Source: Micropepsaceae bacterium
Lineage (GTDB): Bacteria > Pseudomonadota > Alphaproteobacteria > Micropepsales > Micropepsaceae
Direction of reading: 5' to 3'
Length of the DNA: 64,000 nt
Assembly: GCA_036499145.1 (NCBI GenBank)
Contig: DASYEG010000116.1
Coordinates: 798-64,797 of the forward strand
The first letter of the stretch is position 1; every line of letters begins with the position of its first letter. The position numbers and the translations under genes were made by a program. The notes under the pieces are model-generated. The model ran no database searches and was not told the origin of the DNA. It saw only the letters and a program-made list of their open reading frames with translations. This document shows, one piece after another, positions 42,665 through 63,651 of the stretch.

Positions 42665-43552
42665 TCAGAAATCCGGCTTGTCGGCGGTTGGAACGTGATA
42701 GTCGGTCGATGCGAGATTATTTCTCGCTCCCACAAAATTGCCTTCCTGGCAGATGTCCTCGGCCATGCCCACATGCCCCTCTTCAACCTCACCGCGGTCC
42801 TCATGGTAGGGGTCGTAGCGCCTGATGCCTTGCCAAGGTTTTTCGAAGGTGCCCGGATCCTCCGCCGTCACGTGGATTTCCAGCTTCTTGCCGCCTTCGA
42901 TCAGACGAATCCGTTCGATGACATGCAGTTTCTCGGTGTGCGGGGTGCGGAAATTGTCGGCAAAAGTCTTGTCGTTCATGCCGGTCGTGTCGACGACGAG
43001 GGTGTCGCCTTCGTAATGGCCAACCGATTCGCCGTAGTAAGTGGGTTTCAGATTGGTGCTATGGGGCACGTTCAAATAAACATGCCGCGCGAACTGTTCG
43101 CCTTGATTGGCGATCAGCACCTCCTTCGGCGACTGAATGATGAAGAACGGGCCGCCCGAGTTCCAGATCGCCGGAACGCCGTAGGGCCGGCAGGATGAAC
43201 CCGGTGTGTAGGCGATCTTTCCGGCAAGCACCTCCTCATTGTCCTTTTTCATAATGTCCTTGGCCCACTGTTTGATATTGGGATTGGTGAGGTCCGAGAT
43301 GCGGAAGGTCGGCTGCGTGCCGAGGCGCTGGGCGTCCACGTTGTGAATATAGGGGTGCGTCGTATCGTTTCCGGTGGGTTGGGGCGCACCGGGAACTGGA
43401 ATGAAAATCTCGCCACCGCGAGTTCTCCAGCTCCTGCCGTCCGCGGCAAAATTGGGGATTGCACTGGGCGTTTGCGCCGCCGCGCCGGCAACGAGACTGA
43501 CGGCAAGAACGGCCGTGCCGACACCAAACAACATCGAAGCGAATTTGGACAT
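42665..43552 (-). CDS. secreted protein, uncharacterised paralog family, copy P1 (295 aa)
   Basis: GAAGGAG RBS and signal peptide MSKFASMLFGVGTAVLAVSLVAGAAAQ. Family core YYGESVGHYEGDTLVVDTTGMNDKTF...TPHTEKLHVIERIRL. C-terminus VPTADKPDF. Confidence 0.8.
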   Translation of the reverse strand: MSKFASMLFGVGTAVLAVSLVAGAAAQTPSAIPNFAADGRSWRTRGGEIFIPVPGAPQPTGNDTTHPYIHNVDAQRLGTQPTFRISDLTNPNIKQWAKDIMKKDNEEVLAGKIAYTPGSSCRPYGVPAIWNSGGPFFIIQSPKEVLIANQGEQFARHVYLNVPHSTNLKPTYYGESVGHYEGDTLVVDTTGMNDKTFADNFRTPHTEKLHVIERIRLIEGGKKLEIHVTAEDPGTFEKPWQGIRRYDPYHEDRGEVEEGHVGMAEDICQEGNFVGARNNLASTDYHVPTADKPDF

Positions 43553-43731
43553 GGTTTGCTCCTTCTGCCTCTCACGCGCAAACGTGCGGATACGAAATAC
43601 ACGGCAGGGCGCCGTTCAACCGGCCCGATACCGCACTTTGGTTCACTCCAAAACCATCCATAGGCGCCCGAATCTCGAACGGCCCCCTGCGCACTCCAAA
43701 TCAAATATTTTCGTTCCGTTTGAGCCTCGCA

Positions 43732-46700
43732 TTACCAGGCCTTGGTCAGGATGAGTCCGAACGTGCGCCCCAGATCGCTTTTCGTAACGTCGAAGGCCGC
43801 GGGCGCGGAGCCCGCCGCGATTTGGTATTCGAAAGAGGGCAGCTTGTTCATGAGATTCTGGACTACGAACTGGATGCCGATATTCTTGAGATAGTCATTT
43901 TGCGGCAAATCGCCTGTCGTGTATCCGATCGAGAAATCGAATGTGTAGTAGGACGGCTCCAGGCCCGTGTAATTGCTGATGGCGCACGGAAGTGCCCCGC
44001 CGCCGACCGTGCCGCCGGCCGTGAGGCACTGCAAATTGACATTGGGCGGCGCGTTTTGGGTGTTGTAGTAGTGTCCGGTGTAATTGACAAATCCCGTGGC
44101 TGACCAGGGGCCGTTGCTCCAGCCCACCCGGCCCCGGTATCGCATCCTGGGGCTTGTTGTAACGCCCGCCTGCGCAACACCGCCGACGGTACCCGCGTCC
44201 GTGTGGAAATCATCAACGATCGCCGGATTTGGAAGTTCCGGCGTCGGATTATTCACCTCGTACTCGTGCAGGTAATATGTGCCGGTTATGCCCGCGTTCC
44301 ACGCGCCGAGATCACCCGCGTCGTAGTCATAGCTGGCGCTGAAATCGATGCCCTCCAGCTTGATCCAACCGAAATTTCCGATCGCGCCATCATTGATCCA
44401 AAGTATGGAGGTGAGCGAACCCGGCGGCACTGCGTTCTGGGGATCGTTGAGCACGGCGCTAACCATCCTTTCGAACTCGGGACAGGCAGCCGGCTTGTTG
44501 TTGTTGCTGCATCCGGCCACGTCGATACCCGCCTTGGCGATATCCGTAGGCACAATGTAAGAGAAACCGAGTGCCGGATTGTTGACCGTGGAATTGCTCG
44601 GATTGCCGAACTGCGTCAGCGCGTTGCTGATCTTCACCTGATACCAGGTCACCTGGAGATCGAGCCCCTTGAGAAAGTTCGTCGGGGCGAATTCTCCCGT
44701 GAGCGTGTAGTTCGTCGCGGTCTCGGGCCGAAGCGCGGACTGAGCGGTATTCACATAGGCGCGGAAGCCATCCTTGAGCGCGACGCCGCCGGTGGAGTAC
44801 GTGCCTAAGCCGCTGGGATTGGCCCGAGCGCCACAAATCGTACCCGCTGTGCCGGCGTTTCCGACGACACCAGCCCAACCGACGTAACCCGCTCCGGGAT
44901 TCAACAACCTGTCGGTTAGAGAACCCGGTCCCGCGCTGCAGTCGAGGCTGACGGTGCGGTTTGACACGAAATTCGGAATATTGATGCCGGAGATGATGTT
45001 GCCCACGATAGCGGATTGTTCGGCGAAACTTGGCGCGCGGAAGGACGTGCCCCAATCGCCCCGGACGAACAGTCCCATATCCCGCGAAATCGTCCAATTG
45101 AAGCCGATTTTGGGATTACTGGTGCCGCCGACGTCGCTGTACTGGTCGTGACGCCAGGAGGCTTCGATTTCCAGTGCATTGATGAGCGGAATCGAATTGG
45201 CCTCACCGACGATCGGGATATTGAGCTGTGCGAATATGGCCCAGAATTGCGTGCCCTTGGATTCCTGCAGGAGAGGCGTCAACAGGGACGCCACCTTGGT
45301 GTTGTCAAGCTGCGAGTATACCCATCTTTCGGAGGTATAGGTGGCGCCGATGGCGGCTTTGACATCGCCGCCGGGCAGCGAAAACAGCGGGCCGTCAAAA
45401 TTGACACCCTTTTCATTGAACCAGAAACTCGTCGTAGAAAGTCTTCGACCCGTGACGTAATCGAGCGTTGACTGCGCGTTGCAGTCGAGCGAGCGCGGAT
45501 CGCAGAACAGGTTCAGATAGGGAAGCGTCGCGGGCTTGGTCCAGGTGCCGATCGCCGGGGCCGTTCCCGCTGCAAATCCGGCAGGTATCGTCCAACCGAG
45601 CGCGGCCGATACGGCATTCGGATTGACCGCGTGGGTATCGGTACGCGTACCGTTGAAGGTCTCGGAATAATAAATGCGTCCTTGCCAGTCGCCGGGCAAA
45701 TCAAAATTCAGTCCGAGCAAGTAGCGATCGGCGAGTTCACTGGCCGTCGTGAGGGGCGGGACTTCCAGTCCGATATTGTAGTTGACCACCAGATTGTTGG
45801 GCGCACCGCCGGTCGGATAATAAGGATTGCGGGTCGGAACTTGGACCTGCAGATCCTGAGTCGAGGCCGGCGACTGATTGGCGAGATTGAGAAATTCCGC
45901 CCGTCGATTGCTGTAATACCCTTCGCCATAGAAGGATATATCTTTGGTGAGGCGCTGATCGACCGTCAACACAGCAGCGTTGTGCTGCTGGGCCGCGTCG
46001 TACCAGCCGATCGAGTAGGGATTGATTTCGTTTGCCGTGCCGGCCGCGGTATTGGTCGCTCCGCCATTGGCCGAAGTGCCGACGTTCGCCCAGTTGATAA
46101 GGCCGGGGCCGCTGCTGGGCGCAAGTGGTCCCAGCCCCCCGTTCAGGGAGGAATTGAAATTGGCGCCAGCCCCGGCCGGAAGGGCAAAGCAATTGGTACA
46201 GCCCGTTCCCAACCCTCTGAGGCTGCTCGGCGCCGGAACGCCAACCGAGATCGTCGCGGGGATCGAAGAGGCTATCGGCGTTCGGTTGTCGAGGCCCCAC
46301 GGACTGAAATCGGGCGTGAAATTCGAACGGTCCTTGCCCTTGAGCGGCGAAGAATCCGACCACTCGTAGGTCAGCGTTACATCGCCGCCGTCCCAGGTCC
46401 GGCCCCAGAGCTGGGACGCCTGGTATTGCGTTTTGCCGTCCGCGACGGTGGCGCGAAGCTGTGTGATCGCACCGTCATACCCCCGCTTAAGGAGGATGTT
46501 CATCACGCCGCTGACGGCATCGGAACCGTAGGTGGCCGACGCACCGTTCGCTAGAATGTCGACGCGATCGATCGCGAGCGAAGGAATGATGGATGGATCG
46601 CGCTGGCCGGAGTGCTCGCCTTGTGGCGGAACGCGATAACCGTCCACCATCATCAGAGAGCGGACGGGGTATCCCCCAACCGAATCAAGACCGCGGAGAT

Positions 46701-47031
46701 TTACCGAATTCTCCCTGGCGATATTACCACCGTTGTTCGTGCCAACGGCCCCCGGCGTGACGACAAACGCGGGAATAGTCTTGAAAAGGTCCGCGGTCGT
46801 CAGCGCGCCGCTCACAACAAAATCCTGCGGCCCAACATTGGTAACAGGGACACCGACTGAAGCAGCGCCGCGAATTAACGAGCCGGTGACGAGAACCTGT
46901 TCCGGGGCATCTGCCGGCCCGGCCTGAGACGTTTGCGTCTGCGCCTGAGCATAGGCTGCGCCCGAGCTTGCTATGGCCAGCAATGATGCCGAGCCCAGAA
47001 GAGATGCGATTTTCGATACTCTCGGATCCAT
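43732..47031 (-). CDS. TonB-dependent receptor, unusually large (1099 aa)
   Basis: Signal peptide ...LLAIASSGAAYAQAQ. Plug region EQVLVTGSLIRG...VNLRGLD...IDRVDILANGASATYGSDAVSGVMNILLKRG. Long Gly/Asn/Thr/Tyr-rich barrel ending in an aromatic residue (...FGLILTKAW). RBS GGGGAGACGGAG. Confidence 0.9.
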   Translation of the reverse strand: MDPRVSKIASLLGSASLLAIASSGAAYAQAQTQTSQAGPADAPEQVLVTGSLIRGAASVGVPVTNVGPQDFVVSGALTTADLFKTIPAFVVTPGAVGTNNGGNIARENSVNLRGLDSVGGYPVRSLMMVDGYRVPPQGEHSGQRDPSIIPSLAIDRVDILANGASATYGSDAVSGVMNILLKRGYDGAITQLRATVADGKTQYQASQLWGRTWDGGDVTLTYEWSDSSPLKGKDRSNFTPDFSPWGLDNRTPIASSIPATISVGVPAPSSLRGLGTGCTNCFALPAGAGANFNSSLNGGLGPLAPSSGPGLINWANVGTSANGGATNTAAGTANEINPYSIGWYDAAQQHNAAVLTVDQRLTKDISFYGEGYYSNRRAEFLNLANQSPASTQDLQVQVPTRNPYYPTGGAPNNLVVNYNIGLEVPPLTTASELADRYLLGLNFDLPGDWQGRIYYSETFNGTRTDTHAVNPNAVSAALGWTIPAGFAAGTAPAIGTWTKPATLPYLNLFCDPRSLDCNAQSTLDYVTGRRLSTTSFWFNEKGVNFDGPLFSLPGGDVKAAIGATYTSERWVYSQLDNTKVASLLTPLLQESKGTQFWAIFAQLNIPIVGEANSIPLINALEIEASWRHDQYSDVGGTSNPKIGFNWTISRDMGLFVRGDWGTSFRAPSFAEQSAIVGNIISGINIPNFVSNRTVSLDCSAGPGSLTDRLLNPGAGYVGWAGVVGNAGTAGTICGARANPSGLGTYSTGGVALKDGFRAYVNTAQSALRPETATNYTLTGEFAPTNFLKGLDLQVTWYQVKISNALTQFGNPSNSTVNNPALGFSYIVPTDIAKAGIDVAGCSNNNKPAACPEFERMVSAVLNDPQNAVPPGSLTSILWINDGAIGNFGWIKLEGIDFSASYDYDAGDLGAWNAGITGTYYLHEYEVNNPTPELPNPAIVDDFHTDAGTVGGVAQAGVTTSPRMRYRGRVGWSNGPWSATGFVNYTGHYYNTQNAPPNVNLQCLTAGGTVGGGALPCAISNYTGLEPSYYTFDFSIGYTTGDLPQNDYLKNIGIQFVVQNLMNKLPSFEYQIAAGSAPAAFDVTKSDLGRTFGLILTKAW

Positions 47032-47182
47032 GCTCCGTCTCCCCCGCCTTTTCGTTGAAAGGCAAAAACATCACGAAACCCGGCGCCCTCGGGGCAGCTG
47101 GTGCGCGGCAACGATATTTTGGTTAGTCCCCACCTCGGGATCACCTGCCCCCCCGGGCAGATAGACTACCGCCGACGATGAA

Positions 47183-47267
47183 ACTGTCTTGCAACAGGCT
47201 GAGGAGGTCAATCGATTTAGGAGCCCATATTAAATCCTTTTAGGAGCCATATTAAAAATACACTCAT
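47183..47267 (-). promoter_or_regulatory. conserved AT-rich intergenic element, copy A: direct repeats + promoter-like core upstream of the TBDR gene
   Basis: Plus-strand sequence is ACTGTCTtGCAA-n6-GAGGAGgTCAATCgATTTAGGAGcccATATtAAAtccTTTTAGGAGccATAT...CTCAT. It matches copy B at 52227-52312 in blocks. Read on the minus strand it gives two TTAGGAG-complement repeats 23 nt apart, then TTGACC-n17-GACAGT. Confidence 0.55.
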
Positions 47268-48468: not shown

Positions 48469-49266
48469 ATGAGTGCCAAAGTTGTTCACGTCGCGATTGC
48501 GTCGGATCATTACGCGATCAACGCGCGCTTCTACGAATCCCTCTTCGGCATGAAGCCGTCGAGCAAACCGAGGCCGTCACGCTCCGTTGTCGTCGGAGAT
48601 GGCTATGTCGGGCTGAATTGCATTCCGCGGCGTGAAGGGCGCTGTTCGGGGATCGATCATTTCGGGATCGAGGTGGACGATCTGGAAGATACGATCGCGC
48701 GCATCCACAAGTTCGATCCCACACTGGAGGCGGTGAAGCGGCCCCCGATCCGCCCGTTCGCGGCTTACAGTGCGCATGATCCAGACTGCAACGTGTTCGA
48801 TCTGTCGCAGCGGAATATTGGCGTCCAGAAAGACGTCTATGCCGAAAACGACGGCGAGACGCGGCCGCGCCGCATCAGCCATATTGCGATTCGTACGCGG
48901 CAGGCAGAAAAATGCGCGCAGTTCTATGCAGACGTGTTCGGGTTAGCGCCGCAGAACCGTCAGGACGAGAATTTCTACCTCAGCGACGGGCGCGTCACGC
49001 TGATGATCATTCCGTGGAAGATCGGCGATTATTATGGGCAGGACCCCGCGCGCACAGGGCTGGACCATATCGGATTCAAAGTGGAATCGGTCGAGCAGGT
49101 GAAGAAGGATATGGAATTCCTGATAGGCGAGAATCCGCTCATGCATGGGCGGCCCCTGGGCTATGGCCCGGAAGGCGAGTCCCGGCTGAAGCTGTTCCAA
49201 AAATGCCCGCTCGGTTGCTTCCATCTGACCGATATTGAAGGCGCGCTCATCGACGTGGGGGAGTGA
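48469..49266 (+). CDS. two-domain VOC family protein (glyoxalase / extradiol-dioxygenase fold)
   Basis: AGGAG RBS. Two tandem VOC modules (VVHVAIASDHYAINARFYESLFGM...IDHFGIEVDD and ISHIAIRTRQAEKCAQFYADVFGL...LDHIGFKVES). No signal peptide. Confidence 0.8.
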   Translation: MSAKVVHVAIASDHYAINARFYESLFGMKPSSKPRPSRSVVVGDGYVGLNCIPRREGRCSGIDHFGIEVDDLEDTIARIHKFDPTLEAVKRPPIRPFAAYSAHDPDCNVFDLSQRNIGVQKDVYAENDGETRPRRISHIAIRTRQAEKCAQFYADVFGLAPQNRQDENFYLSDGRVTLMIIPWKIGDYYGQDPARTGLDHIGFKVESVEQVKKDMEFLIGENPLMHGRPLGYGPEGESRLKLFQKCPLGCFHLTDIEGALIDVGE

Positions 49267-49449: not shown

Positions 49450-50319
49450 TTATTTTCTGGTCAGCTCTTCATAGGTTGTTTCGGTGAACGTCTGGAACCG
49501 ATTGGCTGACTTTAGCGGCTCTCCGAAAGCCTGCTTGATATCATCGAGCGATTTGCCTTGTTTCACGAGATCGGCGATCCGTGCGCGTTTCGCTTCCGCA
49601 TTCGCAAGACTCTGGCGCACCTGCTCTCTCGTTCCAGCGCCCGCGTGGCCGCGAACATACGTATCGGCATCGAGATCCACGAGCGCGGAGACGAATTTGA
49701 TCCAGCCTTCTGAGCTGCCGTTCTTGAAAAGGTGAATGGTCGGATCGCCGTCGCCGATGAGATCGCCGCTGGCGACGAGCTTATAATCGGGAAAATAGAC
49801 AGCAAGATCGCCGCTCGTGTGGGCGGGCGCGATATGGATCAGCGTCATTTTAACACCCTCGACGGTGATGGATTCGCGCATTTGCGTGATGATTTTGTTG
49901 GGCAGGTATTCCTTGGGAGGCGATTGAAGCCCACCCGCAGCCAAATCCTTTTCGATTTCCTTTTTATCGTTCTCGTGAGCGATGACGGTCAAATTTAAAC
50001 CCTTGGGAAAGCCCCCTAGGCCGCGCACATGGTCTGGATCGCTGTGGGTGAGGATAACCGTCGTAATGGGTTTATTCGTCAGCTTTCCAACTTCATCGAC
50101 GAGTTGCTTGCCATCCGGCGGCCTGTTTTTTGCGTCAACGACGATAACGCCATTCTGGCCGATGATGATGGTGGACGCGCCGCCGCCGCCCTCGGCCATG
50201 TAAATGTTGTCTTTGAGCTTCGTTACGGTCAGTCCCGGATCGGGCACCTGAGCAAATGCCGGCATACCGAAAAAAGCCAATACCGTAACGGTGAATAGAC
50301 CGGCCGTTCGAGTTCGCAT
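49450..50319 (-). CDS. secreted MBL-fold metallo-hydrolase
   Basis: ORF 49450..50370 with start set to ATG 50319 after GGAG. Signal peptide MRTRTAGLFTVTVLAFFGMPAFAQ. The metal motif ILTHSDPDHVRG is a variant of HxHxDH with the second His replaced by Asp. Confidence 0.8.
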   Translation of the reverse strand: MRTRTAGLFTVTVLAFFGMPAFAQVPDPGLTVTKLKDNIYMAEGGGGASTIIIGQNGVIVVDAKNRPPDGKQLVDEVGKLTNKPITTVILTHSDPDHVRGLGGFPKGLNLTVIAHENDKKEIEKDLAAGGLQSPPKEYLPNKIITQMRESITVEGVKMTLIHIAPAHTSGDLAVYFPDYKLVASGDLIGDGDPTIHLFKNGSSEGWIKFVSALVDLDADTYVRGHAGAGTREQVRQSLANAEAKRARIADLVKQGKSLDDIKQAFGEPLKSANRFQTFTETTYEELTRK

Positions 50320-50376
50320 GATGGACTCCATTTTGAGTTGCTTCAGCTGGCGCATTTCGTCCGGCAACATTGTCCT

Positions 50377-53298: not shown

Positions 53299-53331
53299 GG
53301 TTCGTTCCAGCTTTTATGCGTGATGCGTGTA

Positions 53332-55050
53332 TTAGCCCGTGCCACAGATGACGTTGAGCAGCGCCTGTTGGCCGCCCGCCACTGCATCAAGCGCGCGATC
53401 GAGCGCTTTAGGAAGCGCGGCTGCATTTTCCACACGTTCGCCATAACCGCCGACCGTCTCGATGGTCTTCTCATAGCGCGTGCCGGGCTCGAAATAGGTC
53501 AGCGGTTCATGATTGCTCTTGGCCGCATAGCCGTCCGGGTAGACATCGCGCGTGTTACGGCGGACCGCATTCCACATCTCGTTGTTATAGATCACGGTCA
53601 GGGTCGGAAGCTTTTCGGCCTTGCCGACATAATGGGCGGCAATCGGATTGCCGAACATATAGGAGCCGTCACCGACCGCGCAGATCACGAGTCTGTCCGG
53701 CATCGCCGCTTTCATCCCGAGAGCGGTACCGAGGCCCCAACCGAGCGCACCACCCTGCCCCAGCGAATAAAAAGTACCCGGCTTGTTGAAATGCAGATGC
53801 TCCGAAGGAGTCAGGGCTTCCTTGACAACAATGCCATCCTCGCCTTTCACCCGATCGATGCAATGATTGATCCAGCCGGGGTGGATGGTGGAGGCGTTTT
53901 TCGCCTTTTCCAGGTTGGCTGCAATGCGCGTATGCAACGTGTCGCGCGCTTCCGCCACCTTGCACCGGCGTGCCTCGATCCGCGATGAGGCCGCCTTTTC
54001 GCGCGTTGCCAATGCGTCCGTCAGTGCGGGAAGGCTTGCGCCAAGCACGCCGGTGATCGCCAGATCGCAGGGGAAGCCGCGCAATGGATAATTCTCGAAG
54101 AGTGGATCGGCGCCGATATGGATGATCTTGCAATCAGGGCGCGGCGCCTTGCGCTTGGGTACCCAAGGCACATCGGCTTCCAGCACCACGATAACGTCGG
54201 CGGCGTCGAAATAGCTTTCCGGATTCGACCCGAGATGCATCGGGCTGTTCCATGGCATGGACATGTAATGATGCTTGCGCTCGAACACGGGAATAGCGAA
54301 GCGCTCCGCAACGGCTGCCAATTTCGCCACATCGGTTTCCACGCGGCCTGCGGCGCGCGTGATGATGAGTGGAAATTCCGCCGCCGCCAGCATATCGGCT
54401 GCGCGGTCGATGGCGTTCTTGTCGGGAAATGCCGGCGAGGGCGTCGCGTGACGCGACGGCGAAGCGTAACGGAAATTCTTAATCGGCGCGGCAAGCGTCT
54501 CGCGCGGCAGCGTCAAATAAACCGGTCCCATCGGCTCGCTCATGGCGATGTTCAGCGCGCGGTCGACCGCTGCTTCCATCGTCTCGCCATTGGGCAGCTC
54601 GTAGTCCCATTTGACGAATTCGCGCACCATGGCGCGCTGATCGCGCATTTCCTGCGGCCAATGGATTTCGCCGCCGCGCATGCCCATCAACCCGCCTTCT
54701 TCGGAATAGGGCGTGCGGCCGGCGGTGAACAGCACAGGAATATTGCCGCGCCACCCGTTGATGATGCCGCAGAGCGCATTGGCCGTGCCGACGTTCACAT
54801 GCACCATGACGGCCTGCGGGCGGCCGGTCTTGAGGTAATAGCCCTGCGCCATGGCGATGGCGACGTTTTCATGCGGCACGGTGATGGGCTTGGGCACTTT
54901 CGTGCCCTCCACTTGTGCTTTGGCATAAGCCTCGATGATCGGCGCGAAATCCGTGCCGGCATTGGCGAATAGACAATCGATGCCGCGGTCCGCCAGCAGC
55001 GCAAGATAAGCGTCGGCGACCGTTCCCGACTCGATGATCTTTATGGACAC
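53332..55050 (-). CDS. thiamine-diphosphate-dependent enzyme (acetolactate-synthase-like fold, substrate unknown)
   Basis: 572 aa. N-terminal Pyr domain (…VPHENVAIAMAQGYYLKTGRPQAVMVHVNVGTANA…). C-terminal ThDP motif GDGSYMFGNPIAAHYVGKAEKLPTLTVIYNNEMWN (GDG-x-NN). Confidence 0.85.
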   Translation of the reverse strand: MSIKIIESGTVADAYLALLADRGIDCLFANAGTDFAPIIEAYAKAQVEGTKVPKPITVPHENVAIAMAQGYYLKTGRPQAVMVHVNVGTANALCGIINGWRGNIPVLFTAGRTPYSEEGGLMGMRGGEIHWPQEMRDQRAMVREFVKWDYELPNGETMEAAVDRALNIAMSEPMGPVYLTLPRETLAAPIKNFRYASPSRHATPSPAFPDKNAIDRAADMLAAAEFPLIITRAAGRVETDVAKLAAVAERFAIPVFERKHHYMSMPWNSPMHLGSNPESYFDAADVIVVLEADVPWVPKRKAPRPDCKIIHIGADPLFENYPLRGFPCDLAITGVLGASLPALTDALATREKAASSRIEARRCKVAEARDTLHTRIAANLEKAKNASTIHPGWINHCIDRVKGEDGIVVKEALTPSEHLHFNKPGTFYSLGQGGALGWGLGTALGMKAAMPDRLVICAVGDGSYMFGNPIAAHYVGKAEKLPTLTVIYNNEMWNAVRRNTRDVYPDGYAAKSNHEPLTYFEPGTRYEKTIETVGGYGERVENAAALPKALDRALDAVAGGQQALLNVICGTG

Positions 55051-55063
55051 AAAGGACTCCGCT

Positions 55064-55924
55064 TTAGTTTTTCAGGAACGGCACGGCGAGGCGGATGAAT
55101 TCATCCGCCGCATCCCACGGCACAAGATGTTTACAGCCATTGACAATGTGAACATCGAGCTGCGGGAATTTTTCCTTCAGCAGCGTGGCGCGCTCGGCTG
55201 CTTTGGCGCGGTCTTCGCGGCCGAAGATCATCAGCAGCGGCATCTTCAACTCGATGAGGCGCTGCCACAGCGGCATCTTCGGCTGCTTCGGCGGCAATAC
55301 TTCGGCGGCCTGATTGCGCGCGACAAAAGCCTGGAAATTCCTACCGATGCTGCGCGCGTGCCGAAGCGCCAATTCCTCCGGCGTGATCAGCTCGTGATGA
55401 AACAAATTCGCTTCGAGCAGCTTGCGCGTATCGTCAATCGCCGGCTCGCTCTGAGCCATGCGCCGCTCCAGCCTCTGCTGCGCAGCACCTTTATTGCCCT
55501 CGCCTTCGCCGTCAACCGGCGGCAAAAGGCTGCCCGTTCCGAGCACGACGATATGCGAATAGCGGGACGGATCGGTGAGCGCGAGCTGCACCGCGGGATT
55601 GCCGGCTTGCGAATGACCTGCGAGCGCTGCCTGCTTCAGGCCCAATGCCTCCATAAACTTCGGAATACTGTCGCGACGATAGGCGGGCGACAGGTCGGTG
55701 GGTACATCGGAAAGGCCAAAACCTGGCTGATCGAAGGCGATGGCGCGGAAGCCCGCTTGGGCCAGCGGCGCAAGATTGCGGATGAACACATCCGCCGACG
55801 AACCCAAGGATGCGCCATGCAGAAGAAGAACGGCCGGTCCTTCGCCTTCTTCGATATATCGCAGGGCGAGGCCATCGACCGTCACGAATTTATCTTGCAC
55901 GCGAGTCACGCGGTCGGTGCTCAA
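55064..55924 (-). CDS. alpha/beta hydrolase (meta-cleavage-product-hydrolase-like size and motifs)
   Basis: Inner part of ORF 55064..56296. Proposed TTG start at 55924 after GGGAG gives (M)STDRVTRVQDKFVTVDGLALRYIEEGEGPAVLLLHGAS. Nucleophile elbow GHSQAG. The upstream extension overlaps the MFS gene end and looks non-coding. Confidence 0.75.
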   Translation of the reverse strand: MSTDRVTRVQDKFVTVDGLALRYIEEGEGPAVLLLHGASLGSSADVFIRNLAPLAQAGFRAIAFDQPGFGLSDVPTDLSPAYRRDSIPKFMEALGLKQAALAGHSQAGNPAVQLALTDPSRYSHIVVLGTGSLLPPVDGEGEGNKGAAQQRLERRMAQSEPAIDDTRKLLEANLFHHELITPEELALRHARSIGRNFQAFVARNQAAEVLPPKQPKMPLWQRLIELKMPLLMIFGREDRAKAAERATLLKEKFPQLDVHIVNGCKHLVPWDAADEFIRLAVPFLKN

Positions 55925-55950
55925 TGCTCCACTCCCTTTTCGGACATCGA

Positions 55951-57360
55951 TCACGCCACGGCGCGGCGGCCTTGTGGCTCCGCCGCACCTCGCGATGTCT
56001 TGGCGCGCACATTGGCGAGGATCAGGATCCACACGCAGCCGAAGAACATCGGTATCGAGACCAGATAGTACATCGTCTGCAGCGGCCAATGCAGCGCCAG
56101 CATCGTGCCGGCGAACATGACGCTGATTATCGAGCCGACGCGGGCGACGCCATGCGCCCAACTCACGCCGGTCGAGCGAATATCGGTGGGATAGAGTGTT
56201 GCAGCCAGCGCGGCCAGTGTAATCTGGGTGCCGATGTTGAAGAAGCCCGAGGCGAAGATTGTCGCGGCGAGCGGATAGAATGCCCCGCCCGCCCATCCGA
56301 TAGTCGCGATGAACACGCCCCCTGCCGCGAAAGAACCGGCCAGCACCTTGAAAAAGCCGAAGCGGTCGGAGAGAAAGCCGAGCGTGATCACGCCCAGAAT
56401 GCCGCCGAATTGCAGCGAGGCGGCGGCGCGCAAAGCCTGCGCTTCAGGCAGACCGGTTTCGGTGGTCAACGTCGGCAGCCAATTGTTCAGATAATTCAGC
56501 GCCAGAGTGTTCATGAACAGGCACAGCCAGATCAGAACCGTGGCGCTGGTGCGCCCTTCCATGAAGAGACGCACCAGCCTCGGCTGATTGGCGCTTTGTT
56601 CGCGCAGTTCCTGGCGCAACACGAAATGCGTGCCCGGTTCGAAGGTCAGTTCCGGAGCGATCTTGCGCAAAATGGCGATCACGCCATCGCTGCGCCCCTG
56701 CACGGTCAAAAGCCGGATTGATTCCGGCAGCCAAATCCATAGCACCCCCGCCATGACGAACGTCATAGAGGCCGCGGCATAAAATTGCGCCTGCCAGCCG
56801 AAAGCCGGAACCAGATGGGACGCGAGCAAACCGCCCGAGGCCGAGCCCATCGCATAGCCGCAGCCCATCAGCGTGACCATGGCGGCGCGCCTGGCTTGGG
56901 GCGCAAATTCATTCACGATCACCACGGCAAGCGGCACCGCCGCGCCAAGGCCAAGCCCCGTGAGAAAGCGCAAGCCCATCAGCACGTTCAAATTCGATGC
57001 GTCGGGAATCGCAGGCAACAACAGGGTTGAAATCTCCGGCACTTGCGTGGCGATAAGCGAGAACAACGCGACATAAATCACAGTCAGTACCGTAACCCGT
57101 TTGCGCCCATAGCGGTCGGCTAGGGGCCCAATCACGAGTGCACCAACAGCCACACCAAGAACACCTGAGGAGAATACCGTGCGCAGCGCGCCGCGGGCCA
57201 AATCCCAGTCATGGCTGAGCGCGGGCGCGATATAAGCGATGGACTGGTTGTCAACGCCGTCAAGAAACAAAGTGAGCCCGGCCATGAAGGCTATGAGGCA
57301 CTGATAACGACTGACTTTATGAGAATCGATGACGTCCGCGACATCGACCGTCCCGGTCAT
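55951..57360 (-). CDS. MFS transporter, aromatic-acid:H+ symporter (AAHS/PcaK-like) type
   Basis: 469 aa with 12 predicted helices. The N-terminus (SRYQCLIAFMAGLTLFLDGVDNQSIAYIAPAL, PLADRYGRKRV) is typical of 4-hydroxybenzoate/benzoate-type MFS transporters. Confidence 0.8.
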   Translation of the reverse strand: MTGTVDVADVIDSHKVSRYQCLIAFMAGLTLFLDGVDNQSIAYIAPALSHDWDLARGALRTVFSSGVLGVAVGALVIGPLADRYGRKRVTVLTVIYVALFSLIATQVPEISTLLLPAIPDASNLNVLMGLRFLTGLGLGAAVPLAVVIVNEFAPQARRAAMVTLMGCGYAMGSASGGLLASHLVPAFGWQAQFYAAASMTFVMAGVLWIWLPESIRLLTVQGRSDGVIAILRKIAPELTFEPGTHFVLRQELREQSANQPRLVRLFMEGRTSATVLIWLCLFMNTLALNYLNNWLPTLTTETGLPEAQALRAAASLQFGGILGVITLGFLSDRFGFFKVLAGSFAAGGVFIATIGWAGGAFYPLAATIFASGFFNIGTQITLAALAATLYPTDIRSTGVSWAHGVARVGSIISVMFAGTMLALHWPLQTMYYLVSIPMFFGCVWILILANVRAKTSRGAAEPQGRRAVA

Positions 57361-57569: not shown

Positions 57570-58613
57570 GTGGATATCCGGAAGCTGATGTATTTCGTTG
57601 CTGTGAGCGAACAGAAAAGCTTCACAAAGGCCGCAGAGATTCTGCGGATCGCGCAGCCTGCCCTCGGGCTCCAGATTCGCCAGTTGGAACAACAACTGAA
57701 GGTTCAGCTTCTCGTGCGTCATTCCCGCGGCGCGGAATTGACGGACGCAGGCGTTATTCTGCTGCAACATGCGCGTGACATCCTCGAACGAATCGAACTG
57801 GCGGGTGCTGCGATACGCGATTCGACGTCTACGCAGGGCGAGCGCATTATCATCGGCATGGCGCCGAGCATTTCGGCGATGCTGTCGTATCCTTTGATCA
57901 AATTGGGCGCGCAGAAGCTTCCCAATGTCACCATCGTTCTCGTCGAGGAACTCAGTTCCGTGCTTCTCGAATGGTTAGAGAATGGCCGGATCGATATTGC
58001 GATCGGGTACGAACTGCTGCATTCGGCCAAGGTTGCAGGCGATCCATTATTCGTCCAGGATTTCTTTCTCGTGCAGTCACCCAAAGCAAAGACTCGGCGA
58101 AGGAACCTCAATTTCGCCGAGCTTGCCGATATCGAGCTTTTAATGCCCGCGAGTCCGCATGGGCTGCGCGAACTTATGGAAGCAGGCGCAGCGCGGCTGG
58201 GGATCCATCTGAAAATCCGCTTCGAAGTACAATCCATTTCGGTGATGAAAGAGCTGGTGGAACAGGGAATTTGCGCCGCGGTCCTTTCCTATGGCGCAGT
58301 TGCACGCGAATGCGAGAAAGGCCGGCTCGTCGCAACCGAAATCGTCAATCCGACTGTCAAGCGGATCGCCTATCTTGCCTATTCCCTGCGCAGGCCGCGG
58401 TCCAAAGCAAAGGACGCAGTATTGGCATTTATCCGCGAGTTGGCGCTGAAGCAAAAGGGCGTCAATTCCGATCTTCACAGTATGGCTCCATCGTCCGGAC
58501 GGGCGACTAAAGATTTAGGCGCGCAAAAAAAACATCGGCGAAACGGCGTGACGAAGCCGCGTACAGTCCTAACGAGTTCCGGGGGGCCAGCATTTGGTGG
58601 GCGAAAGACCTAG
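57570..58613 (+). CDS. LysR family transcriptional regulator
   Basis: GTG start. MDIRKLMYFVAVSEQKSFTKAAEILRIAQPALGLQIRQLEQQL is the canonical LysR HTH. Has about 45 aa of basic, low-complexity C-terminal extension. Confidence 0.9.
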   Translation: MDIRKLMYFVAVSEQKSFTKAAEILRIAQPALGLQIRQLEQQLKVQLLVRHSRGAELTDAGVILLQHARDILERIELAGAAIRDSTSTQGERIIIGMAPSISAMLSYPLIKLGAQKLPNVTIVLVEELSSVLLEWLENGRIDIAIGYELLHSAKVAGDPLFVQDFFLVQSPKAKTRRRNLNFAELADIELLMPASPHGLRELMEAGAARLGIHLKIRFEVQSISVMKELVEQGICAAVLSYGAVARECEKGRLVATEIVNPTVKRIAYLAYSLRRPRSKAKDAVLAFIRELALKQKGVNSDLHSMAPSSGRATKDLGAQKKHRRNGVTKPRTVLTSSGGPAFGGRKT

Positions 58614-58774: not shown

Positions 58775-60250
58775 ATGCCAGCGGCGGTTTTGAGAAATGA
58801 GTGGAAGCCGGTCCATGCCAGGATGCTTATCGGCGGAGAATGGACCATCAGTACGCAGCGGATCGAGGTGTTCAGTCCCGCCCGGCCCGATGAATTGGTG
58901 GGCACAGTTCCGCGCGGCACGCCGGCGGATGTGGAGCGCGCAATTGCGGCCGCAAAGGCGGCGCAACCCGTTTGGGCTTCGAAGAGCTATAGCGAGCGGG
59001 CACGGATTATTGCCCCCCTGCTCGAACGGTTGGCCGATGATATCGATGAGCGCACCGTTCTCTATGTGCGCGAGAACGGCAAGACCACCCCGGAAGCCAG
59101 GGGCGAGCTTGCCGGCGTTCCTTCACGCCAGCGCCTCACGCTTGACCTGGCAGCGGAATTGGATCAGCGGCGTGAAGCCGATGCGCCTAATGGCAAAAGC
59201 TTTGTCGGCTATCTTCCATTTGGCGTTGTCGTATCCATCGTGCCTTGGAATGCGCCCATGGGTCTCGCGTTTCTTCAGATAATTCCCGCCTTGCTTGCCG
59301 GAAACACAGTCGTGCTGAAGCCGCCAGAGACCTGTCCGTTGTCGCTCATCCGTGCGATCGAGATGATCGCGCCGATGCTTCCTCCGGGGGTTATCAATGT
59401 GGTGACCGGGTTGCCAACCGAGATCGGCGATACGCTCACAACGCATCCAGATGTGGACAAGGTCGCGTTTACGGGCAGTGTGGCGGCTGCGCGTAAAATC
59501 ATGGCCAATGCCGCACTGACGATCAAAGGCATTACCCTGGAGCTCGGCGGCAACGACCCCGCGATTTTGTTGGAAGATGCCGATCTTGGCGATGCCGCGA
59601 TGGGGCGCATGGCGAATTCGGTGTACCGCATGACGGGTCAGGTGTGCATGGCGATCAAACGGATCTACGTTCCGGAATCCATCAAGGGCAGATTCCTCGA
59701 CGCTTTCACCCGGACTGTCGACAAGATCGTGGCCGGCGATGGCCTGGACACGACCGTGACCATGGGGCCGATGCATACCGCGCGGGCCCTGGAGCGGGCG
59801 CAGGCCATCGTTGCCGATGCGGCCAAGCGAGGCGCAAAAGTCCAGATCTTGGGCCAGGTTCCGGATAAAGCAGCATTCGGCCACGGGCATTTCATGCAGC
59901 CTACCGTCGTCAGCGACATTGCCGAAGACGCGCCCTTGGTGGTGGAGGAGCAATTCTGTCCGGCGGTACCTGTCGCGACATATCGCGATGTGGACGACGC
60001 CATCGCCCGTGCAAATGCAACAATCTATGGTTTTGGCGGGTCGATCTGGAGCCGGGATATCGCACGCGCCACCGATCTTGCGCGGCAACTGCATGCGGGA
60101 ACGGTGTTCGTCAACACGCATGGAACCGAAAGCGTCAATCGCAAGCTGCCCTATGGCGGAATCAAACACAGCGGTATCGGACGGCGCGCGGGGATCGAGG
60201 GCGTCAGAGAGTATATGCAAGTTCAGACATTGACGACGTTCGAGCAATGA
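58775..60250 (+). CDS. NAD(P)-dependent aldehyde dehydrogenase
   Basis: ORF 58682..60250 with start set to ATG 58775 after GGGGAGGG. Has catalytic Glu (LELGGNDP) and Cys (GQVCMAIKR) motifs and a cofactor motif (FTGSVAAAR). Confidence 0.9.
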   Translation: MPAAVLRNEWKPVHARMLIGGEWTISTQRIEVFSPARPDELVGTVPRGTPADVERAIAAAKAAQPVWASKSYSERARIIAPLLERLADDIDERTVLYVRENGKTTPEARGELAGVPSRQRLTLDLAAELDQRREADAPNGKSFVGYLPFGVVVSIVPWNAPMGLAFLQIIPALLAGNTVVLKPPETCPLSLIRAIEMIAPMLPPGVINVVTGLPTEIGDTLTTHPDVDKVAFTGSVAAARKIMANAALTIKGITLELGGNDPAILLEDADLGDAAMGRMANSVYRMTGQVCMAIKRIYVPESIKGRFLDAFTRTVDKIVAGDGLDTTVTMGPMHTARALERAQAIVADAAKRGAKVQILGQVPDKAAFGHGHFMQPTVVSDIAEDAPLVVEEQFCPAVPVATYRDVDDAIARANATIYGFGGSIWSRDIARATDLARQLHAGTVFVNTHGTESVNRKLPYGGIKHSGIGRRAGIEGVREYMQVQTLTTFEQ

Positions 60251-60251
60251 A

Positions 60252-62711
60252 TTGCATGCTCAGACTCCATTGGAGATCGCGATAGGCGAGGAAAGGGACA
60301 CCGCCGCGGACTCGGACACGCATGAGACCGCTCAGCTGCTGGCCGAAGCGATTCGCCTGCATCGGTCGGGGCGGATGGCCGACGCTGCGCGCCTCTGTGA
60401 GCGCGTGCGTCAGCACGCGCCGGACAATTTGACGGCATTGCTGCTATCGGGAACGATCGAGCTGCAGTCTGGCCGACATCATGCGGCCGACCAATATTTC
60501 CAGCTTGCGCAAGCGGCCGCACCGCACTCAGTCGACGCGGCCACCGCGCGGTCGAACACGCTCAGAGCGATCGGCAAACATGATCAGGCCCTTGCTGTAC
60601 TCGAGGATATTCTCCGGCACAGCCCCGATCACGCAATCGCATGGAACAATCGGGGTAATCTGCTGCTGGAAATGGGGCGAAACACTAATGCGATCGAGAG
60701 TTATGACCGCGCGATTTCGCTTCATCCCAATTACCTCGACGCATTGCACAATCGTGGCGTCGCACGAATGGCTTCAGGCGACAATTTTGCGGCGGAAGCC
60801 GACCTCACGCGGGCTCTGGAGCTGAAACCGGATTACGTCCCTGCCCTTGTGAACCGCGGAACGGCGCGCGTCCAGCAAAGTCCGGAGCGCGCACATGACG
60901 CGATCACGGACCTTCGGCAGGCCGTCCTGTTGGAGAGAACAAACCCCGATGCGTGGCATATGCTGGGCCGAAGCTATCTTGCGCTCGGACAGCATGCGGA
61001 AGCCTTGTCCAATTGGTCCACGGGGCTGGCGCGGCACGCGAACCATGCGGCGATGCGACACGACAGGGCTTTTTTATTCAACGCGCTCGGCCGCTATTCC
61101 GATGCCGCTACCGATTTCGAACGGCTGATTGCGCTGAACCTCCATGATGCGGCGGCATGGCAGGGACGCGGAATCGCGCTGGCGCGGCTGAATCATGAAA
61201 AAGAGGCGCTCGAGAGCTTTTCGCAAGCGCTGAGATTCAGGCCCGACGATGTTGTGTCTCTGTACAATCGCGCGGCGATTTTTTCCAGGTTGAAACGCTA
61301 TGAGGAAGCCGCTTCCGATCTGGAGGTTCTGGTCGCTGCGGATCCTGAATTTCCGCTCGCCCGCGGGCTGTTGCTGAGCGCGCGACTGTATCTATCCGAC
61401 TGGAAGGGACTGGAACGGCAACGCGAGGCCATCGATGCCTGCGTGCGGCGCGGTTCGAGGGTGATCCATCCATTTGCACATCTTCTGATATCGGATTGCT
61501 CAGCCGCGCAGCTCGCTTGCGCGCGGCGGCACACCTCTGGCGCGTATCCCACCGCGCGCGTGCCGCTCTATCGCGGTGAGCAATACAGCCATGAAAAAAT
61601 TCGCGTGGCATATTTTTCGGGTGATTTTTACCAGCACGCCGTCCCATCTCTGATTGCGGGCGTGCTGGAAAATCACGATTCCAGCCGGTTTGAGATTCTT
61701 GGGATTTCCTACGGCGGTAACGACAAGAGCCCGATGCGCGCGCGCTTGGAGAAAGCATGCGCCCGCTTTTTCGACGTGCGCGAACGCGATGATGCATCGA
61801 TCGCGACACTGCTCCGGAATCTGGAAGTCGATATGATCATCGACCTGAAGGGCCACACCGGCCCCGAACGTCCTGGAATACTCGCTCACCGGCCTTGTCC
61901 GGTGCAGGTGAATTATCTCGGTTATCCCGGAACCATGGGGGCCGATTATATGGATTATCTCATCGCCGACCGGATCGTAATCCCGCCGGAACAGCGGCAG
62001 TTTTATTCCGAACAGATCGTCTACCTGCCCGATACGTATCAGGCAAATGATTCCGCGCGCCCGATAGCGCCGGACGGTATTACCCGCGGCGATGCAGGCC
62101 TGCCGGAGGCGGCATTTGTATTTTGTTGCTTCAATGGCAGTCAGAAAATTCTGCCGCCAGTATTTGATTCCTGGATGCGGATTTTGTCGCACTCCGAAAA
62201 CAGTGTCCTTTGGTTGCTTGAGGACAATCAAGGCACGGCCGTGAATCTTCGTCGTGAGGCGCAGGCGCGAGGTATTGCAGCAGAGCGATTGATTTTTGCC
62301 CGCCACGAGCGGCCTGACCGCCACCTCGCCCGGCTCAAATTGGCTGATCTCGTTGTGGATACGCTGCCCTATGGAGCGCACACAACGGCCAGCGATGCGC
62401 TGTGGGCCGGAGTACCGGTGCTGACCTGCATCGGATCAAGTTTTGCCGGGCGTGTCGCCGCAAGCCTTCTCACGGCCGCCGGCCTGCCTGAACTGATCAT
62501 GCAATCGGTTGTTGAATATGAAGCAACGGCGCAAAATTTCGCCGCTACGCCGGGACTGTTGTTGAAAATCCGGGAAAAGCTGGCGCGCAACCGCGAAAGC
62601 TGCGCGTTGTTCGATACGGTTCGTATGACGCGGAACCTCGAAGCCGCTTATGTGAAAATGTGGCAGCGCCACCAGCGCGGCGAATCTCCCACGGGCTTTG
62701 CGTTACCCTGA
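60252..62711 (+). CDS. TPR + GT41 glycosyltransferase, paralog 6 (about 819 aa)
   Basis: Begins 1 nt after the ALDH stop. A TTG start at 60252 is assumed and is uncertain. About 446 aa of TPR repeats come first. Then YFSGDFYQHAVP, RPCPVQVNYLGYPGTMGADYMDYLIAD, FNGSQKILPP, YGAHTTASDALWAGVP. Confidence 0.85.
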   Translation: MHAQTPLEIAIGEERDTAADSDTHETAQLLAEAIRLHRSGRMADAARLCERVRQHAPDNLTALLLSGTIELQSGRHHAADQYFQLAQAAAPHSVDAATARSNTLRAIGKHDQALAVLEDILRHSPDHAIAWNNRGNLLLEMGRNTNAIESYDRAISLHPNYLDALHNRGVARMASGDNFAAEADLTRALELKPDYVPALVNRGTARVQQSPERAHDAITDLRQAVLLERTNPDAWHMLGRSYLALGQHAEALSNWSTGLARHANHAAMRHDRAFLFNALGRYSDAATDFERLIALNLHDAAAWQGRGIALARLNHEKEALESFSQALRFRPDDVVSLYNRAAIFSRLKRYEEAASDLEVLVAADPEFPLARGLLLSARLYLSDWKGLERQREAIDACVRRGSRVIHPFAHLLISDCSAAQLACARRHTSGAYPTARVPLYRGEQYSHEKIRVAYFSGDFYQHAVPSLIAGVLENHDSSRFEILGISYGGNDKSPMRARLEKACARFFDVRERDDASIATLLRNLEVDMIIDLKGHTGPERPGILAHRPCPVQVNYLGYPGTMGADYMDYLIADRIVIPPEQRQFYSEQIVYLPDTYQANDSARPIAPDGITRGDAGLPEAAFVFCCFNGSQKILPPVFDSWMRILSHSENSVLWLLEDNQGTAVNLRREAQARGIAAERLIFARHERPDRHLARLKLADLVVDTLPYGAHTTASDALWAGVPVLTCIGSSFAGRVAASLLTAAGLPELIMQSVVEYEATAQNFAATPGLLLKIREKLARNRESCALFDTVRMTRNLEAAYVKMWQRHQRGESPTGFALP

Positions 62712-62886
62712 CGCAATCCGGTGGCCGTCAAAAACGCCGGCAATCGCAGCAATCACGAATGACGCGATGGCGTCCGTTCGATCAGGGGAGAGCAAGCCGA
62801 AATGGCTCCTATATTCTTTTGTTTGTGGTGCGCAGAGCCCGCATCATGGAGGATCGGCTTTCGCATGTACCTTCGGGAGGGGTTCG

Positions 62887-63651
62887 ATGGAAGAATTTCG
62901 CGTTCACGCTCGCGCTGGGGTCGCCATCGCGGCTGCGTTGGCTTTTTCGGCGATAGCCGGTTCGGCCTATGGCGCGGGCGCCACGCCGGACATTTCCGGC
63001 ACCTACTGGACGCCGCGCTATTACGCCACGCTTCCGATCGTAGGCGGCGGTGCCCTGCCCCTCACCGCGATGGGCAAGGAGGCCTATGCCAAGAATCAAG
63101 CCGGACTGAAGAGCGGTGAAATCACCGACGCAGCGCGCAAATTCTGCGTGCCTGACGGGATGCCGCGCGCGATGGCAAGTCCCTATCCGTTCGAGATCAT
63201 TCAAGATCCGGCCAACCAAATCACCATGGTCCACGAACTCAATCACCAGATTCGCGTGATTATGATGGACAAGCCGCTGCAGACTTACGAGCAAGTCGTT
63301 GCCTTTCCCTATTACAATGGCCATTCGGTAGGCCATTGGGAAGGCGACACGCTGGTGGTCCAGACCAACGGCTTCAACGAGAAGACCTTTCTCGATGCGA
63401 CCGGCGCGCCGCACTCGGACATGCTGGTAACCACGGAGCGGATCCGCAAGACGGGCGCGAACCAGCTCGAGGATGTGATAACGATCCACGATCCCGACTA
63501 TTACACGCGCGATTTCCAGGCGCGCTTTACCTATGTGCTCCGCAACGACGTCCATCTCGAGGATTATGTCTGCGGCGAACCGCATCGCAACATCGACATG
63601 ATTCCCGGCATCCCCGAAGCTCGGCGGGCCAATGCCGCAGCCGGTCGATAG
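62887..63651 (+). CDS. secreted protein, uncharacterised paralog family, divergent copy P6 (254 aa)
   Basis: ORF 62698..63651 with start set to ATG 62887 after GGGAGGGG. Signal peptide MEEFRVHARAGVAIAAALAFSAIAGSAYGA. Core NGHSVGHWEGDTLVVQTNGFNEKTFLDATGAPHSDMLVTTERIRK. Lacks the PDF tail. Confidence 0.8.
   Translation: MEEFRVHARAGVAIAAALAFSAIAGSAYGAGATPDISGTYWTPRYYATLPIVGGGALPLTAMGKEAYAKNQAGLKSGEITDAARKFCVPDGMPRAMASPYPFEIIQDPANQITMVHELNHQIRVIMMDKPLQTYEQVVAFPYYNGHSVGHWEGDTLVVQTNGFNEKTFLDATGAPHSDMLVTTERIRKTGANQLEDVITIHDPDYYTRDFQARFTYVLRNDVHLEDYVCGEPHRNIDMIPGIPEARRANAAAGR

Follow-up and report, generated by a model that had tools for sequence, protein, structure and literature searches.

Six clustered genes of a Micropepsaceae bacterium belong to a very large family of exported proteins with a predicted calycin-type barrel

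We analysed a stretch of 64 kb from a Micropepsaceae bacterium (GenBank assembly GCA_036499145.1, contig DASYEG010000116.1, positions 798 to 64,797; subsequently designated the window), which carries six paralogous genes, P1 to P6, for exported proteins of one family (Table 1). An earlier note, made from the sequence alone, had described six such reading frames. A check of the open reading frames (ORFs) confirmed the position and strand of each, and tblastn searches of the whole window with every single copy returned exactly these six places and no seventh copy. Pairwise E-values among the copies range from 1e-11 (P5/P6) to 1e-169 (P2/P4, 73% identity) and, judged by these values, their homology is far beyond chance. 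The family is new and uncharacterised, very large and, as far as predicted models tell, of a known fold class; the observation is real and richer than first described.

None of the six copies matches a model of Pfam-A (E ≤ 1) or of NCBIfam, and two profile searches of the PDB sequences gave no match. Likewise, when 78 members were scanned singly, no recurrent Pfam family appeared at E ≤ 5; a few of them match models of the Tat signal. Hence the earlier statement that the proteins could be assigned to no family stands, and their sources name them "hypothetical protein" or not at all. An exhaustive HMMER search of 1.84 billion representatives assigned at least 16,219 clusters (50% identity) to the family at E ≤ 1e-3 and 9,450 clusters at E ≤ 1e-10, and a word-indexed search yielded at least 7,470 significant matches among 8,000 scored candidates. 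The best genome matches, in which loci of the family are numerous, were metagenome-assembled genomes (MAGs) from Micropepsaceae, Xanthobacteraceae, Hyphomicrobiales and unclassified Alphaproteobacteria; the family is abundant in soil Alphaproteobacteria, and its arrays can reach a dozen copies or more. Distant homologs (27-36% identity) reside on replicons of cultured Novosphingobium, Sphingobium and Croceibacterium. A literature search for the family context, for the families DUF6152 and DUF6644 that are encoded nearby, or for their Pfam accessions found nothing.

In a heuristic check for export signals, all six proteins exhibited an N-terminal hydrophobic h-region followed by sites with small residues at -3/-1, and neither a lipobox nor a Tat motif was detected in any of them; the n-region of P5 contains no K/R. 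The Sec-type signal peptides claimed for all copies are thus borne out, and the proteins look exported. Among 344 homologs, Tat-like RR signals were seen in 14 and lipobox-like strings in 8, in place of plain Sec signals.

The colinear sequence blocks that had been listed for the six copies proved real in their alignment, but required small corrections. P1, which had been said to possess no clear counterpart of the 'VGDYRNPIL' block, does carry a divergent one, 'ISDLTNPNIKQWA'; the block around the first Cys reads QCRT in P4 rather than CRP; the leading His of 'H(Q/E)(V/I)R' is confined to P3, P5 and P6, and the His of 'H(V/L).ER' is missing from P6. In a broad alignment including the sphingomonad homologs, a Cys, an Arg, a Gly, a Thr, a Glu and a further Cys are invariant, and the motif GxSxGxxEGDxLV..T.G, an Asp, a Glu-Arg pair and another Asp are conserved to at least 90%. 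The universal polar core comprises R, S, E, D, D, E-R and D plus the two Cys. No His is universal in the broad alignment, and none is invariant even among the six copies; the His-based metal site that had been proposed is therefore not supported. The suggested Cys pair fared better: exactly two Cys are present in every one of the six copies, and both were found in 328 of 338 full-length homologs, 227 of which contain exactly two. Since export signal and Cys pair occur together, one disulfide per protein is likely.

Two types of family members can be distinguished. Type B, comprising P1 to P5, possesses an N-terminal extension and a conserved DF-COOH tail; type A, represented by P6, is compact and lacks both. 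The ending ...(K/T/R)xDF-COOH was observed in ~200 of 281 retrieved homologs, and across loci the genes resembling P1 to P5 nearly all end in DF, whereas those resembling P6 do not. Orthologs of P1 share 72-93% identity, and P6 belongs to a tight orthogroup (70-87%). Homologs of at least 335 amino acids (aa) form ~25 distinct clusters, all of which are tandem two-domain proteins, mostly with type A followed by type B, as is also the case for the best-scoring ones; no other domain was found fused to the family in these clusters. A model of one A-B fusion (P0002, 508 aa; pLDDT 82.6) reached a pTM of 0.81, which argues for a defined packing of the two barrels. The natural fusions provide indirect evidence that A and B proteins encoded by separate genes may also pair.

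To which fold these proteins might belong was assessed with AlphaFold2 and Foldseek. The model of P5, built from a 78-sequence alignment (pLDDT 87.2, pTM 0.83), predicts a long helix that spans residues 81-95 and eight barrel strands in sequence (residues 120 to 262), besides a helix insertion specific to P2, P4 and P5 and a C-terminal tail of lower confidence. Its best matches in the PDB are all calycins, namely fatty-acid-binding protein (FABP), cellular retinol- and retinoic-acid-binding proteins (CRBP, CRABP), myelin P2 and avidin, with probabilities of up to 0.98 and TM-scores of 0.45-0.5; nothing was retrieved from the PDB at E ≤ 1e-3. A second, independent model retrieved the same calycin families (probability 0.99-1.00, TM-score 0.54-0.60 on the target). 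The calycin barrel matches of these predicted structures have E-values of 0.007-0.1, and a viral fold library returned no match. At the fold level, the models show the closed up-and-down barrel of 8-10 strands typical of the calycin superfamily (probability 0.97-1.00), with eight sequential strands per module in both of them. A calycin-type fold class is thus reasonably supported by modelling, and the check by structure prediction that had been recommended gave a likeness at this level and no confident match to a characterised family.

Assignment to known families with comparable folds or roles failed in each case. No match to the Pfam lipocalin family, which is marked by a conserved G-x-W region near the N-terminus, was obtained with the six copies (E ≤ 1) or the 78 members (E ≤ 5). 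FABP, CRBP, CRABP, myelin P2 and the avidins, which are the most consistent Foldseek matches, share the small antiparallel up-and-down barrel. The ligands of intracellular lipid-binding proteins are hydrophobic carboxylates, e.g. fatty acids and retinoic acid, which internal Arg residues hold in place; this agrees with the invariant Arg residues of the family and with the aromatic-acid transporter encoded in the operon of P3 to P5 (see below). However, no sequence similarity and no profile match to the FABP-type proteins is detectable, the model has 8 main strands where FABP-type proteins have ten, and the helix-turn-helix lid between the first two strands is absent from it. In addition, the family proteins are about twice as long, exported, predicted to contain a disulfide, equipped with the conserved DF tail and proposed to pair as two barrels. 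Blc and YceI, exported 8-stranded barrels of the envelope that bind lipids or isoprenoids, resemble the family in setting. Blc, however, is a lipoprotein, whereas the six copies lack a lipobox; no family member matches the Pfam models Lipocalin or YceI, and neither protein is among the 50 best fold matches in either PDB search.

Our favoured reading, which we regard as possible rather than probable, is that the family members are small-molecule carriers or chaperones of the periplasm working as A/B barrel pairs. A close rival, mainly because the polar cluster is universally conserved, holds that they are periplasmic enzymes on a calycin-type scaffold, in which the Arg/Glu/Asp/Ser cluster transforms imported substrates and the arrays reflect substrate specificities. 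Indeed, the core R..GxSxGxxEGDxLV..T.G..D..ER..D persists across paralogs of ~25% identity, and in the model the conserved polar residues locate to strands 3-6, while variation is found in strands 1, 2, 7 and 8. Positions that are fixed within orthogroups but differ between them are not enriched in the barrel strands, so that an enzymatic or interface role has to be considered. Enzymes on such scaffolds exist, e.g. allene oxide cyclase, lipocalin-type prostaglandin D synthase and some Diels-Alderases. Moreover, the genes lie among enzyme genes of a catabolic operon in the window, and elsewhere their neighbours are mostly catabolic, encoding amidohydrolases, flavin adenine dinucleotide (FAD) oxidoreductases, old yellow enzymes (OYE) and metallo-beta-lactamase (MBL)-fold hydrolases. 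Nonetheless, no catalytic family or motif was matched in Pfam, NCBIfam or the PDB sequences, no cofactor-binding motif is present, the nearest fold matches are binders rather than enzymes, and the conserved cluster could equally be explained as dimer interface or structural salt bridges. We consider an enzymatic role somewhat unlikely.

The model of the A-B fusion drew attention to a further alternative. Its top Foldseek match is 5yvf (BFA1; E 9.5e-4), and a DUF3598 structure (2o62) and TbpB (E 5e-3) appear as well. BFA1, like the model of the fusion, has two interacting barrels per chain, and TbpB has two lobes, each with a barrel. BFA1 is an assembly chaperone, the assembly factor of chloroplast ATP synthase, a setting unrelated to that of the family. 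By analogy, the family members might be accessory or assembly factors which dock on large TonB-dependent receptors (TBDRs) or other envelope proteins, for instance via the DF-COOH tail, and bind no substrate. The conserved ...KPDF tail, modelled with low confidence, does resemble a short docking motif, and arrays adjoin several TBDR genes. However, global superposition with BFA1 or TbpB is poor (TM-score 0.15-0.23, root-mean-square deviation above 20 A; for BFA1/DUF3598 0.16-0.23 and 23 A), there is no Pfam DUF3598 match, and the family copies far outnumber the TBDRs, many of them having no TBDR nearby. Such a docking role appears distinctly improbable.

The genes surrounding the six copies are compiled in Table 1. 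A TBDR, a periplasmic MBL hydrolase, a DUF6152-like protein and catabolic enzymes had been named as neighbours, and family matches support all of them.

Table 1. Coordinates of the family genes and of other features in the window
Feature	Position	Strand	Remarks
P1	42665..43552	-	type B, 295 aa, DF-COOH tail; 179 base pairs (bp) downstream of the TBDR gene on the same strand
P2	47385..48266	+	type B, 293 aa; divergent from the TBDR gene, followed by the VOC gene
P3	50377..51213	-	type B, 278 aa; same operon as the MBL gene, 6 bp upstream of it
P4	51282..52166	-	type B, 294 aa
P5	52411..53298	-	type B, 295 aa; 33 bp downstream of the ThDP enzyme gene; copy used for modelling
P6	62887..63651	+	type A, 254 aa; short N-terminus
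TonB-dependent receptor	43732..47031	-	~1,100 aa; Plug domain, E 1.2e-13
Two-domain VOC (vicinal oxygen chelate)/glyoxalase-fold protein	48469..49266	+	downstream of P2
Secreted MBL-fold hydrolase	49450..50370	-	last gene of the P5-P4-P3 operon
PcaK-like aromatic-acid major facilitator superfamily (MFS) transporter, BphD/HsaD-like hydrolase, thiamine diphosphate (ThDP) enzyme (PRK08327 type)	53332..57360	-	upstream part of the operon; intergenic gaps -4, 13 and 33 bp
LysR-type regulator	57570..58613	+	divergent from the minus-strand operon
DUF6152 gene (start)	63897..64000	+	signal peptide, then HHSFAMFD...; cut by the end of the window
Five TPR (tetratricopeptide repeat)-GT41 genes	19440-30448	+	560-914 aa; in a row
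Sixth TPR-GT41 gene	60252-62711	+	directly upstream of P6
Secreted 200 aa protein	41796-42398	-	266 bp downstream of P1

P5, P4 and P3 are part of a run of minus-strand genes in the order PcaK-like aromatic-acid/H+ symporter, BphD/HsaD-like hydrolase, ThDP enzyme, P5, P4, P3 and MBL hydrolase, with gaps of -4 to 244 bp from the symporter to the MBL gene. The MBL hydrolase comes closest, below threshold, to the NCBIfam models of the 'quinoprotein relay system zinc metallohydrolase' (SoxH-related), and MBLs similar to it recur beside type B genes. The receptor gene between P1 and P2 encodes a TBDR according to its Plug domain and its relatives with Plug and barrel; the barrel model itself gave no match on the window protein, but in three TBDRs of ~1,100 aa in locus L093 both Plug and TonB_dep_Rec_b-barrel were matched. 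The window TBDR has close homologs (E 1e-173 to 1e-239) in loci L060, L073, L074 and L079, and in related MAGs this TBDR subfamily flanks arrays of family genes.

P6 is preceded by a TPR-GT41 gene, and a gene for DUF6152, a conserved companion of type A members, starts 245 bp after it. The full-length copy of the latter, located on contig L090 of a matching metagenome, belongs to PF19649 (E 1.2e-35, 121.9 bits at a cut-off of 27), which identifies the truncated gene in the window. In that metagenome (JGI 3300036781), pieces of the window occur as three short contigs (L081, L090 and L091; 5-11 kb) encoding identical proteins; the window therefore stems from an assembly of higher contiguity, made from the same population or one very similar to it.

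Next, we addressed how the genes are arranged in other genomes. A total of 89 loci was inspected, which are not independent and some of which were chosen through P6; their genes were called by codon log-odds, a procedure which recovers every known gene of the window, and their TBDRs were found by an iterated hidden Markov model seeded on the window TBDR among others. At least three family copies are present in 30 of the 89 loci, and arrays reach at least 11-12 genes. Accordingly, the 'striking local expansion' noted earlier is true of the window but typical of the family. In two independent assemblies, three TBDR genes of ~1,100 aa are directly followed by a P6 ortholog that heads at least 11 genes; in the one assembly covered by hmmsearch, the genes behind the P6 ortholog proved to be type B, and their mutual identity is 28-65%. 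Locus L084 (1-15380) contains 11 family genes, eight of them consecutive, with an interrupting carboxylesterase gene. The flanks of L084 carry AsmA-like, NHL-repeat, 2-oxoglutarate-Fe(II) oxygenase and cupin genes, and no TBDR is encoded in its 18 kb. In another locus, a syntenic relative, TBDRs, TPR-GT41, aldehyde dehydrogenase and MBL genes are combined with five family genes. The MAGs most syntenic with the window (GCA_964446945.1 and GCA_964494505.1; loci L047, L048, L060, L073, L074, L079, L082 and L093) carry the title 'uncultured Bordetella sp.', an organism name that may be wrong: by their loci they group with MAGs of Micropepsaceae, Xanthobacteraceae and unclassified Alphaproteobacteria.

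Long arrays of divergent exported paralogs would also be expected if stockpiled periplasmic immunity or inhibitor proteins were directed against diverse antibacterial toxins or lytic enzymes; MliC/PliC exemplify small beta-barrel inhibitors in the periplasm. We regard this explanation as very improbable: a single core motif is common to all copies, co-transcription appears to join the genes to others for catabolism and transport, and none of the neighbour families encountered repeatedly consists of effector or mobile-element genes.

For a more general view, a Pfam census of 82 other loci compared 221 immediate non-family neighbours with 150 genes at least 5 positions away. The immediate neighbours are very mixed and mainly catabolic and transport genes, including those for the enzymes listed above; TctC genes are among them. 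MBL hydrolases are enriched beside family genes (7 near, none listed far) and are the only neighbour family that is recurrently enriched next to type B genes. TBDRs showed no enrichment beside family genes in general (3 of 221 near versus ~1-2 of 150 far), and some family copies are solitary, standing beside housekeeping genes. The link to TBDRs suggested in the earlier note was consequently rejected for the family as a whole, but retained for loci with type A or DUF6152 genes and for the clade of the window and the relatives of its bacterium. Indeed, a TBDR is present in 6 of 12 loci with DUF6152 compared to 6 of 77 others (Fisher p 0.001), DUF6152 in 7 of 21 loci with type A compared to 5 of 68 others (p 0.006), and a TBDR in 6 of 21 loci with type A compared to 6 of 68 others (p 0.03); given the selection of the loci mentioned above, these counts are indicative only.

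The sphingomonads provide compact examples, as a TBDR lies within ~5 kb in all four of their loci. In Croceibacterium, the order is DUF6152, DUF6152, family gene, TBDR, and in Sphingobium family gene, DUF6152, family gene, DUF6152, two DUF6644 membrane proteins, TBDR. In Sphingobium sp. TomTYG65, the genes of the two small, adjacent DUF6644 proteins (L089, 10051-11069, minus strand) separate the family/DUF6152 pairs from the TBDR gene; these proteins may contribute the inner-membrane part of a family/DUF6152/TBDR module.

These tight DUF6152-family gene pairs and DUF6152-family-TBDR operons could be taken to indicate a TBDR-linked periplasmic metal or redox system together with DUF6152 and DUF6644, in which the barrel binds a metal or metallophore via carboxylates. 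The Asp/Glu-rich conserved core would suit such a role, and the minority of Tat-like signals can indicate cofactor loading before export. However, His is not conserved in the family, a metal role for the mature N-terminus of DUF6152 (His-His-Ser) would have to be assumed, and most type B copies have no DUF6152 nearby. Furthermore, the context in the window is catabolism of aromatic and organic acids rather than metal homeostasis, and the Sphingobium locus sits inside a sulfonate/monooxygenase cluster. A metal or redox function is thus improbable.

Returning to the carrier model, we propose the following. The products of the six genes would be soluble proteins of the periplasm from a single, very large and undescribed family, whose core is predicted to be a small up-and-down calycin-type beta-barrel. 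The stretch ahead of strand 1 is probably joined to the C-terminal tail by a single disulfide, and the DF-COOH tail of type B is probably flexible. Paired A and B barrels would carry or chaperone poorly soluble organic substrates, e.g. aromatic acids, that enter via large TBDRs or other routes, and would hand them off to MFS transporters of the inner membrane or to periplasmic enzymes such as the secreted MBL hydrolase. The paralog arrays would broaden the substrate range: the module of type A, DUF6152 and TBDR may be the conserved core, with DUF6152 as its accessory, and the type B arrays its diversified partners. What the analysis shows is homology, export signals, the Cys pair, the predicted fold, natural A-B fusions, arrays and gene associations; we infer that disulfides form, that A and B proteins made from separate genes pair, that ligands are bound, of which kind they are and in which direction they are handed on.

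Several findings speak for this carrier model. The proteins combine signal peptides and a Cys pair with a predicted barrel whose matches are known carriers, and natural A-B fusions exist. P5, P4 and P3 belong to a closely spaced operon, next to a LysR regulator gene, that also encodes a PcaK-like transporter, a meta-cleavage-type hydrolase, a ThDP enzyme and an MBL hydrolase; type B arrays adjoin TBDR genes, sphingomonads possess DUF6152-family-TBDR operons, and TBDR, DUF6152 and type A genes co-occur. The periplasmic role in binding or transforming a substrate that had been suggested at the outset fits this predicted calycin-like fold and operon context. In the TBDR-to-MFS route for a lignin-derived dimer (DdvT to DdvK), no periplasmic component is named (PMC6874591).

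Other findings count against the carrier model. The fold likeness is weak, as no single-barrel match reached E ≤ 1e-3, and searches of Pfam and the PDB sequences revealed no sequence-level relation to any calycin family. The charged and polar cluster on strands 3-6 is retained across paralogs with only ~25% identity, as is commoner in catalytic or cofactor sites and in fixed protein interfaces than in ligand pockets that diversify, and specificity-type positions are not concentrated in the barrel strands. Finally, TBDRs are not enriched beside type B genes in general, some copies stand alone by housekeeping genes, and the loci used for the statistics are interdependent and in part selected through P6.

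A more far-reaching version, which we consider unlikely, is that the family together with DUF6152 (and DUF6644 in sphingomonads) forms an unrecognised periplasmic leg of alphaproteobacterial TonB-dependent uptake, be it by A/B carriers or by barrel enzymes. Here, large TBDRs would pass hydrophobic or aromatic substrates on to A/B heterodimers, the type B paralogs of an array, a dozen in number, would act as interchangeable specificity subunits around one conserved type A protein, and the DF-COOH tail would be a docking or pseudo-ligand element. If so, the diversification of SusC/SusD-type systems would be functionally analogous, but this one would be placed in the periplasm and rest on an unrelated fold. 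TbpB, hemophores and SusD are, like the family, encoded beside TBDR genes and diversified by paralogs. TbpB and SusD, however, are surface lipoproteins, and SusD is alpha-helical. With Sec type I signals and no lipobox in the six copies, the family is predicted to be periplasmic instead; lipobox-like strings in 8 of 344 homologs likewise set it apart from TbpB-like, Slam-dependent lipoproteins. The Bug/TctC receptors offer another parallel, being periplasmic proteins of ~300 aa with many scattered and clustered copies beside catabolic genes. Bug proteins are expanded in Bordetella and Cupriavidus and adopt an alpha/beta Venus-flytrap fold. Whereas Bug/TctC proteins are covered by Pfam PF03401, the family has a predicted all-beta core and matches neither this nor any other substrate-binding protein model of Pfam or NCBIfam.

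To our knowledge, no description exists of the passage of hydrophobic or aromatic nutrients through the periplasm once TonB-dependent import has taken place. Since the family exceeds 16,000 clusters, is absent from Pfam and NCBIfam, is arrayed and is tied to TBDRs, DUF6152 and DUF6644, it may be a concrete, testable candidate for this missing periplasmic step in nutrient uptake by soil bacteria. Genetic work is feasible because cultured Novosphingobium, Sphingobium and Croceibacterium carry homologs. Should the carrier idea prove wrong, a definition of the family would still annotate much metagenomic dark matter.

Some minor observations concern the wider surroundings. The five consecutive TPR-GT41 genes (O-GlcNAc-transferase-like), together with the sixth ahead of P6, represent a second local paralog expansion in the window, and TPR-GT41 or TPR genes also adjoin family genes in other loci. 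Glycosylation of the family proteins at 'MN..H' by the neighbouring GT41 enzymes was considered and rejected: an N-x-S/T sequon was found there in no more than 27 of 344 homologs, whose sequons are altogether fewer than composition would predict. A 1,111 aa ORF in locus L020 (6056-9391, minus strand) was likewise rejected as a family-TBDR fusion. In this chimera or pseudogene, the N-terminal half of a family gene is joined in frame to what we take, from reading by eye, to be a planctomycete-type PSCyt/DUF1549-like protein; misassembly or a pseudogene is the probable cause, and the neighbouring family gene seems frameshifted as well. The secreted 200 aa protein encoded downstream of P1 has no NCBIfam match but a sub-threshold match to DUF5666 (E 4e-4), and its copy on metagenome contig L091 shows the same weak match.

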